From IMG/VR virus record IMGVR_UViG_3300024518_006364: a stretch of DNA of 64,000 nt; one strand, written 5' to 3'. A program made the translations under genes and the position numbers. The notes under the pieces are model-generated. The model did no database searches and was not told where the DNA came from. It saw nothing but the letters and a program-made list of their open reading frames with translations. Source of the DNA: an uncultured virus (IMG/VR IMGVR_UViG_3300024518_006364) (lineage: Duplodnaviria; Heunggongvirae; Uroviricota; Caudoviricetes). Shown here in pieces: positions 11,089-57,806 of the stretch. The first letter of the stretch is position 1. Each line of letters opens with the position of its first letter.

Positions 11089-11164
11089 GCGCGTATAGCT
11101 CAATGGTAGAGCGAGGAGACTCTAAATTTCCCGGTTGCCGGTTCGAGTCCGGCTGCGCGCACCA
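11089..11164 (+). tRNA. Amber suppressor tRNA (anticodon CTA)
   Basis: Acceptor GCGCGTA/TGCGCGC; D-arm GCTC/GAGC; anticodon arm GGAGA-CTCTAAA-TTTCC; T-arm GCCGG-TTCGAGT-CCGGC; ACCA end. Confidence 0.85.
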
Positions 11165-15957: not shown

Positions 15958-16734
15958 GTGCGTTTGAAACTTGTGACAATCACAGGCGTCGACGAGCGGA
16001 CCAATCCGTTGTTCGCAAGACGCCTGTCCGAAAGGTTTCCATTCATCGAGTTCGCGATGCTCGTCAGCGAGAGCAGCGGGGGCAAGAAGCCGCGCTACAT
16101 GACTGTCCCGGACGTGATCCGGATGCTCGGCATGCTGCGTGCGCACCAGGGACCGAAGCTGGCGGTCCACATCTGCGGGAAATGGTCCCGCCTGCTTTTG
16201 GAGGGCCGCGCGGACGAGCTCGGTGCCACACAGTTCCAACATCTCCTTCGCCAAGGGGCGCTCCTCATGGACCACGGGCGCGTCCAGTGGAACATCAATC
16301 CCGCGAACGTGAAGCGCGACAAGTGGAACATCCCCAGCGTGATCAATATTCTCCATGAGTGCTTCTACAACGGGAATCTGATCCTCCAGCGCCACAACCT
16401 GGAAAGTGCCGACCTCTCAAACGCGTTGCGTGCGACGCTCGCGCGCGAGGAGTATCTGCACCACCGCTTGCACATAGACGTGCTGCACGACCTGTCCGGC
16501 GGACACGGTGTTGTTCCCGAGGGAATCCCACCTCCCATCGGGATGTACTGTGGCTACGCCGGGGGCTTTTCCCCCGAGAATGTTGGTGTACGCCTTCGAC
16601 AGCTGGCCGCAAAGCCGCCCGAGAACGGTGGGTTCTGGATCGACATGGAGAGCGGTGTCAGGACCGACGACTGGCTGGACCTGAAGAAGGTTGAGCACGT
16701 CCTTGAAGTGGCAGCGCCCTACGTGGAGGCATGA
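15958..16734 (+). CDS. TrpF (phosphoribosylanthranilate isomerase)-like TIM-barrel protein
   Basis: Motifs ITGVD, DLSGGHG, GYAGG..PENV and WIDMESGVR. Confidence 0.7.
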   Translation: MRLKLVTITGVDERTNPLFARRLSERFPFIEFAMLVSESSGGKKPRYMTVPDVIRMLGMLRAHQGPKLAVHICGKWSRLLLEGRADELGATQFQHLLRQGALLMDHGRVQWNINPANVKRDKWNIPSVINILHECFYNGNLILQRHNLESADLSNALRATLAREEYLHHRLHIDVLHDLSGGHGVVPEGIPPPIGMYCGYAGGFSPENVGVRLRQLAAKPPENGGFWIDMESGVRTDDWLDLKKVEHVLEVAAPYVEA

Positions 16735-17006
16735 TGGCTACGGCCAAGAAGAAGAAACCTGCCAAGAAGAAAGAGAAACTCATCCCGCCCGACCTGAAAC
16801 GTTGCCAAGCCGAAAGCCGTCCCGAGTGGAGCTTCATGTCCTTCGGACCCAAGCCCCCGCTGGTGCGGTGCAAGAGGAAGCCGACGCACATCGTCATCGA
16901 GAAGAAGGAAAAAGGGAAGCAGCAAGGCTCGATGTCCCTGTGCCCGAAGTGCCTGGAAGTCTGTCTGGGACAGATGCCAGGCCTCACGGTCAAGGCCATC
17001 GACTGA
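16731..17006 (+). CDS. Small basic Cys-rich protein
   Basis: ATGA coupling; RCQA..RC..CPKC. Confidence 0.55.
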   Translation: MMATAKKKKPAKKKEKLIPPDLKRCQAESRPEWSFMSFGPKPPLVRCKRKPTHIVIEKKEKGKQQGSMSLCPKCLEVCLGQMPGLTVKAID

Positions 17007-17011
17007 TCAGT

Positions 17012-17154
17012 GGTTGCGGGAGGTTGGCTTAGAAGCAGCCATCCTATAATGAGTGGGACAAGTACTTCGGTCGCCGCAACGCAGGGGGGGTTCCATTAAT
17101 CACACTGTGGCTCCTTGCACCGCGGTCCCTTTGGCGTGACAGCACACCGCAGCC
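17012..17154 (+). ncRNA. Stand-alone RNA mimicking the 23S rRNA L11-binding domain (H43-H44), with an inserted subdomain
   Basis: GGAGGTTGGCTTAGAAGCAGCCATCCT and GCGTGACAGCACAC within a closing stem GGTTGCGG/CCGCAGCC. Confidence 0.8.
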
Positions 17155-17157
17155 TAT

Positions 17158-17232
17158 GACCCCATCGTTTAGTGGTTAGGACGTCAGACTCTCAATCTGG
17201 AAACCGGGGTTCAACTCCCCGTGGGGTCACCA
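17158..17232 (+). tRNA. tRNA-Glu(CTC)
   Basis: TCAGA-CTCTCAA-TCTGG; CCA end. Confidence 0.93.
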
Positions 17233-17239
17233 GTCACAT

Positions 17240-17315
17240 GGATCGGTAGCACAACGGCTAGTGCAGCTGGCTCTTAACCAGAAGGCTGAAGGTTCGAATC
17301 CTTCTCGGTCCACCA
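17240..17315 (+). tRNA. tRNA-Lys(CTT)
   Basis: Loop CTCTTAA; CCA end. Confidence 0.92.
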
Positions 17316-17364: not shown

Positions 17365-17766
17365 ATGAGAAAAGACAAAGACGAGTACAATGCTTACATG
17401 CGCGCATACATGAAGAAGCGCTACAGACAGCGTAGACGGAAGGCTCTTCAAAAATTGGGGGGCCGCTGCCAGAATTGCGAAAGCAAAAAGGACCTCCAGA
17501 TTGACCACGTGGATCCTACAAAAAAGTCCTTTTCTGTCAGCAAACTCTGGAGCATCGCGGAAGAGAAATTCTGGAAGGAGTTGGAAAAGTGTCAACTTCT
17601 CTGCCAGAAGTGTCACTCGAAAAAGAGCATCATCGAACGCGGGATGAAGATCGCAAAGGGCACACATGGGACGCTCTCCTCCTACCGCTACTGTCACTGT
17701 AAGTTGTGTAAAGCAGCCCGCCGAAAGTGGGCAACCTCCTATCGTGCGCGGAAAAAGGGGGTATAG
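17365..17766 (+). CDS. HNH endonuclease
   Basis: CQNC..LQIDHVDP..KCQLLCQKCH. Own promoter TTGTCT-N17-TACGTT ends 6 nt before the ATG, so probably leaderless. Confidence 0.9.
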   Translation: MRKDKDEYNAYMRAYMKKRYRQRRRKALQKLGGRCQNCESKKDLQIDHVDPTKKSFSVSKLWSIAEEKFWKELEKCQLLCQKCHSKKSIIERGMKIAKGTHGTLSSYRYCHCKLCKAARRKWATSYRARKKGV

Positions 17767-18693: not shown

Positions 18694-18770
18694 GGGCGCT
18701 TAGGCCACTTGGTAGAGCCGGGGGACTTAAAATCCCCGTGTGCCGGGTTCGACTCCCGGAGCGCCTACCA
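18694..18770 (+). tRNA. tRNA with Leu(TAA) anticodon but short variable loop
   Basis: GGGGA-CTTAAAA-TCCCC; 5-nt variable loop; CCA end. Confidence 0.85.
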
Positions 18771-18808
18771 CCATTCCCCGAACCAATCCCCGAACTGGAG
18801 TATTTGCA

Positions 18809-19939
18809 GTGACACAAAGAAAGATCACCGTCATCACGCACGGCGACATGGACGGCCGTGCCTGCGCCGTCATCGCCGAAGAGTTCTTCACCGACGCGAA
18901 GGTCACCGTCTCCTACGTCGGTTACACGGGTCTCTCCGAGGCCATTACCAACGCGCTCGCTGCCTCCGGGTGGGACGAGCTCTGGATCACGGACCTGGGC
19001 CCCGATGCCAACACCCTGATCAAGATCGACTCGGCTAGCGCCGAAGGCAGACAGGTCTACGTGTGCGATCACCACAAGACCTCGCGCGAACGTGAGCGCT
19101 TGTACCCGTGGTTCTTCTTCGATGAGAACCTGTGTGGCGCCCAGGTCTTCGCCAAGGCGCTGAAGATGGACCACGAGACTCCGTTCCTCAAGGCAGTACA
19201 GGCCTGGGACTGCTGGCTCACACACAACCCTGACGGAACGCCCCACGAGTGGCGTTACACGGGCGAGATGCTGAATCGCTACTGCCTGTGGCTCGGGAGC
19301 CACAAGTTCGTCAGCTTCGCCAAGCGCTTTCACCTCAACAGCCTGGACCTTGACGGCTACTCGCCGGACAAGTTTCTCGAGGCCTGCGGCGTGGAAGCCC
19401 TCCAAACGATGACGATGCTGGTGGACAAGGAGGAGCAGAACGTCAGGCGACTGGCGTCGCGTTGCACCAAGCGCACGGGCCCTGATGGGCTTGATTTCGC
19501 CTTCGTCGTCGCCACCAAGAACATCGGCCAGCTCGGCGAGTACCTGCACCAAGGACTGACCGAGCGCGTCGTGGTCAAGGAGACGGTGGTCGCCGGGGTC
19601 GAAGAGGGGGCGGTGGTAGGCACAACACCTCCCATTCCCTCCTACGACCATGTCCCGCGTCCCGCGGAGGAGATCGACCAGCACCTCAAGCACCTGGAGG
19701 GGTGTCAGTATCTCTTGGCCCTCAACCTCGAGTACGGGCAGTGTGCGTTGCGCCGTATCGGTACCTTCGACGTGTCCGACATCGCACGGAAGCATGGTGG
19801 TGGAGGCCATGCGGGGGCCGCGGGCTTTCAGTTGCGGGGCAACTGGCAGATGTGGCTGGGTGACTGGCTCTGGACGATGATCCAGGCCAACGAGAAGCAG
19901 CCGGGGTACCAGGAGTATGCGAGGTACCTCGATGAATGA
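18809..19939 (+). CDS. DHH/DHHA1 phosphoesterase (NrnB/oligoribonuclease-like)
   Basis: Motifs THGDMDG, ITDL, CDHH and GGGGHAGAAG. Confidence 0.88.
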   Translation: MTQRKITVITHGDMDGRACAVIAEEFFTDAKVTVSYVGYTGLSEAITNALAASGWDELWITDLGPDANTLIKIDSASAEGRQVYVCDHHKTSRERERLYPWFFFDENLCGAQVFAKALKMDHETPFLKAVQAWDCWLTHNPDGTPHEWRYTGEMLNRYCLWLGSHKFVSFAKRFHLNSLDLDGYSPDKFLEACGVEALQTMTMLVDKEEQNVRRLASRCTKRTGPDGLDFAFVVATKNIGQLGEYLHQGLTERVVVKETVVAGVEEGAVVGTTPPIPSYDHVPRPAEEIDQHLKHLEGCQYLLALNLEYGQCALRRIGTFDVSDIARKHGGGGHAGAAGFQLRGNWQMWLGDWLWTMIQANEKQPGYQEYARYLDE

Positions 19940-25001: not shown

Positions 25002-25595
25002 ATGCAAAAAAGGAAGATAGGGGAACAGGACCTGGGTCGCCTGTTCTTCACCGCTGACCTGCATCTGGGACACGCCAACATCTTGAAGCCCGACTACGCT
25101 GACCGCCCCTGGGACGATGTCGAGGCCATGGACAAGGGCCTGATCGAGGCCTGGAATGCAAAGGTTCCCGAAGAGGGAATCGTGGTCGTCGCTGGCGACC
25201 TGTTCTGGGACGGGCGCCGTGCCCAAGAGTATCTGAAGCAGCTCAACGGACGAATCATCTACGTACTCGGAGACCACGGGGACAAAGTGAACGAAGCGCT
25301 CTTCGAGAGTGTTTACCATCTGTTGTGGCTGAAGATGCCTGGAGACAGGCCCGGCATCTTTGTGAATCACTGGGCCCAGCGACGCTGGCCCAAGGCCCAC
25401 TACGGTTCGTGGCATCTGTTCGGCCATTCACATGGAGAGCTCCCGCCTTGGGGGCGCTCATTCGACTGTGGTGTCGACGACATGAAGGGCGACTACGCTC
25501 CGTTGACCTACTACGAGGTAGCAATGCGGATTGCTGGCATCGAGCAGTCGCCCATGTTCGAGGAAACCACGCATCACGGGAAACGGGGAACGTGA
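25002..25595 (+). CDS. Calcineurin-like metallophosphoesterase
   Basis: Motifs ADLHLGH, AGD, LGDH, NH and GHSH. Confidence 0.88.
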   Translation: MQKRKIGEQDLGRLFFTADLHLGHANILKPDYADRPWDDVEAMDKGLIEAWNAKVPEEGIVVVAGDLFWDGRRAQEYLKQLNGRIIYVLGDHGDKVNEALFESVYHLLWLKMPGDRPGIFVNHWAQRRWPKAHYGSWHLFGHSHGELPPWGRSFDCGVDDMKGDYAPLTYYEVAMRIAGIEQSPMFEETTHHGKRGT

Positions 25596-57122: not shown

Positions 57123-57806
57123 ATGTCTCAGTTGATCGTGTCCCTGCGTGAGATCGCGGGGGCCTACACTGACTGTCGCCGCCACTATCACAACCTGCTG
57201 CACATCCAGCAGATGTTCCAAGATGCCAAGAGATTCGGAATTCACCTGATCGACGTACAAGTCGCCGCCATCTGGGGACACGACATTGTCTACGTTCCCG
57301 GCGCCCCCGACAACGAAGAACAGAGCGCAGATCTCACGTGCTCCCTCCTTGCCGAGGAGGGTGCGTGTCGCATCGTGACCGATGCCGTCCGCGAGATCAT
57401 TCTCTGCACCAAGAACCACGTGCCCACCTGTGACGCTGCGAAGGACGTCATCGATCTCGACCTGGCTCCGCTTGGCTATGACAACGAGGCTTACTGTGCA
57501 GGTTCTTTGAACGTGTACAAGGAAGCCAAGGCGTTCATTCCCGATCTGGACGATGGGGAGTACGTCGGAAAACGCATTCAGTTTCTCGCTGCGTACCTGG
57601 CCAAGCTCCCGCTGTACACCACTGTTTGGGGCAGCGAGGCGTTCGATCGTCAGGCCCGGGTCAACATGAAGATCGAGCTCAGGACCCTCCAGGAATGGTT
57701 CAAAGGAGGCGGAGGGATCCTGGACGACATCGAGGACTACGAAAGTCTTTTCACGGTTTTCAGGGACCTCGCAAGGATCGAGAGAGGTAAGGAGGAAGAG
57801 GCATGA
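57123..57806 (+). CDS. HD-superfamily phosphohydrolase
   Basis: Motifs RHYHNLLH, GHDIVY..NEEQSA and IDLDL. Confidence 0.8.
   Translation: MSQLIVSLREIAGAYTDCRRHYHNLLHIQQMFQDAKRFGIHLIDVQVAAIWGHDIVYVPGAPDNEEQSADLTCSLLAEEGACRIVTDAVREIILCTKNHVPTCDAAKDVIDLDLAPLGYDNEAYCAGSLNVYKEAKAFIPDLDDGEYVGKRIQFLAAYLAKLPLYTTVWGSEAFDRQARVNMKIELRTLQEWFKGGGGILDDIEDYESLFTVFRDLARIERGKEEEA

Follow-up and report, generated by a model that had tools for sequence, protein, structure and literature searches.

The DNA analyzed here (the window) is a stretch of 64,000 nucleotides from an uncultured virus, IMG/VR record IMGVR_UViG_3300024518_006364, and it occurs in eight seawater metagenome runs, none of them listed as an RNA run. 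Inside the tRNA gene cluster of this marine phage, at 17012-17154 on the + strand, lies a 143-nt RNA element that copies the top of H42, together with H43 and H44, of 23S rRNA (E. coli positions 1051–1108). A structured insert of 75 nt splits this copy of the GTPase-associated center (GAC), the docking site of uL11 and the translation GTPases, between U1090 and G1091. By ARAGORN, the window has 14 tRNA genes, and every one of them is on the + strand. The features of the locus are listed below.

16731-17006, + strand: 91-aa ORF, no match to any family; stop codon 5 nt before P1
17012-17019, + strand: closing helix P1, 5' strand, GGTTGCGG; 8 bp with 17147-17154
17021-17045, + strand: H43 equivalent, every letter as in the Rfam LSU consensus
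17023-17043, + strand: H43 part, GTTGGCTTAGAAGCAGCCATC, by direct sequence check
17044-17054, + strand: CTATAATGAGT, by direct sequence check
17046-17054, + strand: junction AUAAU-GAGU, equivalent to 1082–1090, from the sequence and the family alignment
17055-17129, + strand: insert of 75 nt, closed by GGGAC (17055-17059) and GTCCC (17125-17129)
17130-17133, + strand: UUUG linker from insert to H44, a family signature absent from rRNA
17134-17146, + strand: H44 equivalent, GCGTGACAGC (1091–1100), then ACA (1101–1103)
17134-17147, + strand: H44 part, GCGTGACAGCACAC, by direct sequence check
17147-17154, + strand: closing helix P1, 3' strand, CCGCAGCC; pairs with 17012-17019
17158-17232, + strand: tRNA-Glu(CUC), ARAGORN; Rfam tRNA, 63.3 bits; 3 nt past P1
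17240-17315, + strand: tRNA-Lys(CUU), ARAGORN; Rfam tRNA, 64.1 bits

All strings and coordinates that a first-pass annotation had given for the element are present in the sequence, exact to the base. The same annotation had described the closing helix as a non-rRNA stem of 8 bp. The 8 bp are there, but the two inner G-C pairs are the near-invariant rRNA pairs 1054-1105 and 1055-1104: 17018-17019 correspond to G1054 and G1055 at the top of H42, and 17147-17148 to C1104 and C1105. The lower stem of H43 is formed by AGG (17021-17023) and CCT (17043-17045), then UU, with U1060 at 17024; the upper stem (GGC, 17026-17028, with GCC, 17038-17040) carries the loop TTAGAAGCA (17029-17037), which is of the type UUAGAAGCA and places A1067 at 17031. 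At the junction, the 1082-1086 pair is A17046-T17050, A1084 and A1085 fall at 17048-17049, and G1087, A1088, G1089, and U1090 occupy 17051-17054. The H44 letters of the window are GCGUGACAGC, then ACA (17134-17146), with a G at 17138, where rRNA and most members of the family described below have A1095.

On neither strand is the element spanned by an ORF of at least 40 aa. When positions 16900-17260 were scanned against Rfam 15, the bacterial LSU rRNA model (LSU_rRNA_bacteria, RF02541) aligned 17020-17069 to its positions 1097–1144 of 2925 with 22.0 bits (E 6.6e-5); this was the one relevant match, and no other family matched the element. The likeness to rRNA, which the first-pass annotation had noted, is thus measurable, though it lies below the gathering score of 50. 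The match is not listed in Rfam scans of the whole 64 kb, and no further rRNA-like pieces were found in the window at E <= 1. We rejected an assignment of the element to bacterial LSU rRNA, given 22.0 bits against a threshold of 50, an alignment restricted to model positions 1097–1144, and flanks that consist of a phage ORF and tRNA-Glu. A group I intron at LSU position 1090 was also considered, because an invariant U precedes the insert and its last nucleotide is an invariant G. Group I introns take up roughly 200 nt or more; the insert, at 75 nt in the window and 41 nt at the family minimum, is too small, and it has no Rfam intron match (no intron family at E <= 10 in 16900-17260 or in Pseudomonas phage pf16, and none at E <= 1 in ten other family members). 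The stretch has an unremarkable minimum free energy (-53.6 kcal/mol, z -0.70, with 44 of 200 shuffles folding at least as well), and imposing the family structure on the window costs 15.8 kcal/mol relative to the minimum (-36.6 versus -52.4). Such a cost is expected for a fold held by tertiary contacts, yet it lends the element no support. Statistically, the weight of the case lies with the relatives of the element.

A blastn search with the 150-nt element matched, via its 5' half, 48 of 50,697 phage records. Eleven of these were inspected, and 10 proved to be complete genomes of cultured phages that carry the same architecture in an intergenic gap: Pseudomonas phages pf16, Milchi, and UNO-G1W1, Aeromonas phage 4_4572, Serratia phage BF, Erwinia phage Kaldavass, Xanthomonas phages XacN1 and XbC2, Cronobacter phage GAP32, and Pectobacterium phage CBB. 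The shared architecture comprises the closing helix, H43, UAAxGAGU, the insert, and UUUGGCGUARNAGCRCAC. The eleventh record, Paenibacillus phage Pd_22F, is not a member: it has genuine 23S (83076-84912; L249) near the end of a record labeled "complete," and this stretch is either host DNA or an assembly artifact. A second blastn search also matched Xanthomonas phage XaC1, Yersinia phages fHe-Yen9-03 and fHe-Yen9-04, and a Vibrio jumbo phage (blastn matches only).

Because the 3' half (UUUGG..., with GCACAC in place of GCUCAC) differs from rRNA, it was used as a search pattern. The motif was found in at least 119 viral contigs, and among the matches listed an H43-like motif lies 70–461 nt upstream on the same strand in 103 of 119. 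A covariance model (R1), trained on the window plus 50 distinct members, then matched 78 of the first 80 viral loci listed (E <= 1e-6). Members outside the training set scored 62–133 bits and two genuine 23S rRNAs 59.0 and 44.4 bits; the window itself scored 108.5 bits, but as a training sequence. An nhmmer profile made from 98 family matches, with the window left out, recovered 17014-17151 (66.9 bits, E 1.2e-20) as the sole significant match in 64 kb. Like the other members, the window has G-C inner pairs in P1, H43 with U1060, and a paired 1082-1086 followed by GAGU; from 17055 to 17148 it continues with a helix-closed insert, UUUG, an H44 of the form GCGURNNAGC, and ACACC. With more than 90 distinct members, the element is not confined to the phage of the window.

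The 3' pattern also occurs at 120 or more loci in 185,579 bacterial and archaeal genomes. Thirteen family members were identified among the matches listed, mostly on MAG contigs rich in tRNAs or tRNA arrays; by our estimate, the remaining loci are what a 17-base pattern should match by chance in 596 Gb. Given these 13 among at least 120 loci listed, the GAC-mimic family is essentially viral. A single copy of the RNA is present in each of five cultured genomes. Two nearby copies were seen at locus L200 (1171-1532 and 2379-2574), and likewise on the minus strand of L066 (688-892 and 900-1226), where the second scores much lower (48.5 bits). Rfam 15 holds no family for a phage GAC mimic, and full-text literature searches, whose coverage excludes most subscription journals, returned no description of one. 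Hence the family is undescribed so far as we could find, its absence from print being unproven.

Covariation was analyzed in an alignment of 51 sequences with 27 pairs. Pairing was found in 84.3% of cells, compared with 63.9% in shuffles, and the covariation score was 0.519, compared with 0.144 +/- 0.011 in shuffles; none of 500 shuffles reached 0.519, and sliding the partners by 1–3 columns gave 0.09–0.17. At 20 of the 27 pairs, changes had occurred on both sides. In P1, 75% of cells are paired over 12 aligned pairs, 10 of which changed on both sides; the inner G-C pairs 1054-1105 and 1055-1104 were kept in 50 and 51 of the 51 sequences, respectively. The closing helix, whose sequences are unrelated across phages, is unbroken and 5–17 bp long in 71 of 93 unique members. 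The lower part of H43 is 98.7% paired, with two of its three pairs covarying. The 1082-1086 pair covaries as well (CG in 21, UA in 19, and AU in 8 of 51 sequences; AU in the window), and the helix that closes the insert is 77.6% paired, all five of its pairs having changed on both sides. The first-pass annotation had argued from the compensated closing stem and structured insert for an evolved non-coding RNA rather than a scrap of rRNA, and the covariation and the more than 90 distinct relatives now bear this out. Comparative analysis shows that the two ends of the RNA meet in a four-way junction, of which the variable insert is the fourth arm; the other three arms are a near-exact copy of the autonomous uL11- and thiostrepton-binding domain of 23S rRNA.

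Nucleotide conservation was counted over 91 unique members, the 5' half being unconstrained by the search pattern. G1059, U1060, G1063, C1079, A1084, A1085, G1087, A1088, and U1090 are kept in all 91; G1055, U1066, G1071, C1072, and A1077 in 90; and G1054, U1083, and G1089 in 89. A1069 is kept in 85 and A1067 in 84 members, and position 1095 is A in 83, G in 7, and C in 1, the search pattern having admitted only A or G there. As the 3' half served as the search pattern, its conservation is partly by construction. It is nonetheless present in all 10 of the cultured-phage members found via the 5' half alone, with small variants such as a compensated A-U in GAP32 and CBB.

The conserved positions can be read against structural work on the ribosomal domain. 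Passages of PMC2175356 describe hydrogen bonds of the U1060-A1088 pair with Gly130-Thr131 of uL11, and a thiostrepton cleft lined by A1067 and A1095. In passages of PMC1919483, G1055=C1104/A1085 is described as an A-minor triple of the junction; it and its neighbor are the base triples where H42 meets H43/H44. Judged by this comparison, the phage family fixes exactly the positions of the fold and of uL11 contact, which are invariant or nearly so. The exposed nucleotides A1067 and A1095 are less fixed than the fold core: the window has G1095, and 7 of 91 members lack A1067. This greater freedom fits binding of the uL11 C-terminal domain and argues against a role that needs contacts with translation factors or thiopeptides.

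The insert is far more variable. Its length in the family ranges from 41 to 365 nt (median 124), so that the 75 nt of the window are among the shortest. Inserts are lineage specific; no module is shared across the whole family, and the insert of the window resembles that of no other family locus compared. A module consisting of CACCCC, a hairpin of 3 bp with a tetraloop, and GGUAAGG recurs in 20 of 93 unique members (among them L001, L002, L245, and L246), where it precedes the UUUG linker by 10–12 nt; it is absent from the window and matches no known motif. The linker itself, which is part of the search pattern, is invariant in the family alignment and present in 10 of the 10 cultured-phage members found by their 5' half. 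Six members (L009, L054, L081, L099, L116, and L123) have an extra hairpin of 21–47 nt in the 3' strand of H43, between A1077 and U1078, which is a second permitted insertion site. The insert enters beside H44 and could in principle hinder protein binding. We searched the inserts for a second rRNA mimic, such as the sarcin-ricin loop, by running blastn-short with 108 members against a Dickeya rRNA operon, and rejected the idea: outside the GAC, only scattered matches of 10–19 nt appeared. There were no Rfam matches within the inserts of pf16 and ten other members.

The first-pass annotation had also pointed out that the position of the element permits release by tRNA processing, and the wider family agrees with this. 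In the window the element ends 3 nt before tRNA-Glu, and 22 of 94 unique members have a same-strand tRNA that starts within 30 nt downstream of the conserved CC; in 21 of 94, a tRNA ends within 60 nt upstream. Overall, same-strand tRNAs flank 44 of 94 members and opposite-strand tRNAs none (flanks of up to 700 nt for most loci, less for some). In the jumbo phages BF, GAP32, CBB, XbC2, and Kaldavass (350–380 kb), no tRNA is annotated within 900–1500 nt of the element, and the closing helix runs into a U-tract. The tRNA-adjacent members and the tRNA-free loci of jumbo phages, taken together, therefore indicate an independent RNA gene that is usually, not always, in a tRNA array. A scan for sigma-70 promoters and terminators around the element of the window revealed nothing adjoining it. 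There is likewise no conserved neighbor protein, as six-frame ORFs around 99 matches cluster only among close relatives (largest cluster, 6 loci).

A ribosomal-protein autoregulatory leader was rejected, since two tRNAs and an HNH endonuclease gene lie downstream. Neither uL11 (PF00298) nor bL12 (PF00542) is encoded in any of five cultured phage genomes, and no ribosomal-protein family was found in the window (20 ORFs against Pfam, 46 against PHROGs). The HNH gene (17365-17766, + strand; PHROG 4234, E 1.1e-29) lies in the tRNA array after the mimic and two tRNAs, and in Pseudomonas phage Milchi an HNH gene (L245 1153-1509) directly follows the tRNA next to the mimic; these genes may reflect homing-endonuclease traffic in tRNA regions. 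The phage of the window is otherwise unrecognized: 8 of 46 ORFs match any PHROG family, and the named matches are the HNH endonuclease, a tail fiber protein, a DHH-family phosphoesterase directly after the tRNA array (18740-19939, + strand; PHROG 4771), a phosphoesterase (25002-25595, + strand; PHROG 547), and a phosphohydrolase (57123-57806, + strand; PHROG 19425). One tRNA of the window, at 11089-11164 (+ strand; Rfam tRNA, 61.5 bits), has the anticodon CUA of an amber suppressor and is labeled tRNA-Pyl by ARAGORN. By a crude count, reading TAG as sense raises the number of frames of at least 150 aa from 79 to 101, and TAG ends 20 of the 79 long frames; there is no clear sign of TAG recoding in the window.

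Small hypothetical CDSs are annotated over the mimic at L245 (929-1060), L246 (972-1079), and L247 (932-1024). In Milchi and UNO-G1W1 they run opposite to the RNA, whereas the one in Kaldavass has the same orientation. All are probably spurious gene calls. With the family missing from Rfam, phage annotation overlooks the mimic or covers it with spurious small ORFs of this kind.

One could suppose that the element is a functionless scrap of captured host rRNA, or a chimeric assembly that includes rRNA reads. Indeed, its H43 stretch matches abundant rRNA letter for letter over 37 nt, contigs from the metagenomes break at this 37-mer, where depth jumps to thousands (17007-17080), there is no depth over 17081-17154 in the four runs mapped, and one "phage" record, that of Pd_22F, does carry genuine 23S. 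Contigs mapped on the window bridge only the upstream ORF and the 5' half of the element, and contigs from three other runs join that ORF to the H43 part (16600-17055, 16720-17048, and 16600-17025). With no depth over 17081-17154 and a graph break at the 37-mer, the reads neither prove nor disprove contiguity across the whole element. However, the flanks of the element are not rRNA, and neither of the two genuine 23S rRNAs compared has the signatures of the family, namely the closing stem, the UUUG linker, and GCACACC. Moreover, the covarying architecture is common to more than 90 distinct members, which come from unrelated contigs, and to 10 complete genomes of cultured phages. We conclude that this family evidence excludes a scrap or a chimera, to which we assign a negligible probability.

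What the RNA does is a matter of graded likelihood. The first-pass annotation had put forward a hypothetical decoy for uL11, RelA, translational GTPases, or rRNA-targeting defense toxins. From the invariance of the fold nucleotides we infer that the RNA would take up the uL11-binding fold off the ribosome and bind host uL11. The reading we favor, which in our estimate stands about an even chance, is that of a stable phage non-coding RNA, released from a tRNA transcript, that would act as an off-ribosome mimic and bind host uL11 or another ligand of the site. The element would be transcribed together with the tRNA array, and the 3' end of the mimic, just past its closing helix, would result from the RNase P cut that generates the 5' terminus of the following tRNA. 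The RNA would then adopt the tertiary fold recognized by uL11, bind host uL11 and possibly other ligands of the site, and draw them away from ribosomes. Ribosomes short of uL11 would fail to activate RelA, and the stringent response would be blunted during infection. Mutants in rplK/relC are relaxed, as uL11-deficient ribosomes cannot activate RelA; the outcome for the stringent response, speculative as it is, is the most concrete consequence predicted. Most cellular uL11 sits on ribosomes, so a uL11 sponge would have to depend on exchange or on freshly synthesized protein.

A free RNA of this kind might instead serve counter-defense, as a decoy or pseudo-substrate that soaks up or inhibits a toxin, from the host or a competitor, attacking the GAC of 23S rRNA; we hold this to be unlikely. 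A toxin aimed at the GAC exists: passages of PMC8661411 describe Tre23, an Rhs ADP-ribosyltransferase of the type VI secretion system, which modifies H44 within a minimal fragment 1043–1123, upon which the GTPase activity of EF-G falls. The location of the mimic in tRNA arrays is in keeping with a decoy, given the proposal (PMC10264068) that phage tRNAs evade tRNA-targeting defenses. The loops of both H43 and H44 are conserved, not the uL11 surface alone, which also speaks for a decoy. Literature searches, however, found no anti-phage system aimed at the GAC, and we know of none. Unless it bound very tightly, a stoichiometric decoy would also be inefficient, faced with an enzyme that acts catalytically and with ribosomes in the tens of thousands. 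A similarly improbable proposal, which we rate lower, is that the RNA binds another partner of the site (a translational GTPase, RelA, or the tRNA elbow) and tunes translation or tRNA handling, or that its core is a protein-recruiting handle for the insert. On the ribosome, the tRNA elbow touches the A1067 region. The 1067 loop is largely kept (U1066 in 90, A1067 in 84, and A1069 in 85 of 91 members), the mimic is consistently co-located with tRNAs, and the CACCCC-hairpin-GGUAAGG module recurs. Against this, no signature nucleotides vary more than the exposed A1067 and A1095, the window having G1095; no insert module is common to the family, and the insert of the window has no match among the loci compared; and isolated GAC RNA binds factors only weakly.

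Returning to the off-ribosome mimic of the uL11 site, a broader interpretation is that phages bring their own copy of the stalk base into a conflict over this site. The copy would serve as a counter-measure, acting either as a decoy or replacement part when hypothetical bacterial immune effectors target the GAC, or as a uL11 trap that silences the RelA alarm. We consider this possible, albeit doubtful. If it were true, the ribosomal stalk base would be a battleground between phages and bacteria, and the mimic would point to host factors not yet known. Its strict conservation implies a strong general benefit tied to uL11, the stringent response, translation GTPases, or GAC toxins. Since the RNA is small, should fold autonomously by analogy with the 58-60-nt rRNA fragment, and has cultured carriers with tractable hosts, the proposal can be put to the bench directly.

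The closest relative of the mimic is the GAC of 23S rRNA itself, the 58-60-nt domain that binds uL11 and thiostrepton. Both have the same H43 sequence, junction (UAAxGAGU), and H44 loop, as well as the same secondary structure and patterns of covariation (1057-1081, 1058-1080, and 1082-1086), and all tertiary-contact nucleotides that could be mapped are invariant or nearly so in the mimic. Unlike the ribosomal domain, the mimic is free-standing and phage encoded, and it has its own closing helix, an insert of 41–365 nt after U1090, the UUUG linker, and A in place of U at position 1101 (GCACAC versus GCUCAC). Its core does not follow the rRNA variant of the host. Members from phages of Enterobacterales read GAGU...UUUGGCGUAAYAGCACAC, whereas a Dickeya 23S rRNA reads GAAAGCGUAAUAGCUCAC, so that GAGU and GCACAC stand against GAAA and GCUCAC. 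This independence speaks for a single phage lineage of the element, passed from phage to phage, rather than for recurrent acquisition from hosts.

Phage tRNA arrays offer a second comparison. The T4 tRNA cluster encodes small stable RNAs, and the mimic is likewise a small RNA among same-strand phage tRNAs, probably released by tRNA-processing enzymes. In contrast to phage tRNAs, it is not tRNA-like and imitates rRNA.

The nearest literature concerns ribosomal proteins encoded by phages (PMC6375957) and the mRNA leaders of ribosomal proteins. The leaders of L20, S15, and S4, as described in passages of PMC7247131, are also off-ribosome copies of the rRNA site of a ribosomal protein; they are cellular, cis-acting 5' UTRs of their own operons and copy few contact nucleotides. 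PMC7247131 mentions no uL11 leader, and "L11" does not occur in it. The mimic, in contrast, has a gene of its own within a phage tRNA array, copies the whole domain near letter for letter, and has no ribosomal-protein gene nearby. RNA mimicry of ribosomal-protein sites is so far known only from cis-acting mRNA leaders of cellular genes. Here, an entire functional center of the ribosome is copied near letter for letter as a separate phage gene, with many unrelated carriers that range from 98-kb Pseudomonas phages to 385-kb jumbo phages and include many uncultured phages of marine, soil, and gut habitats.
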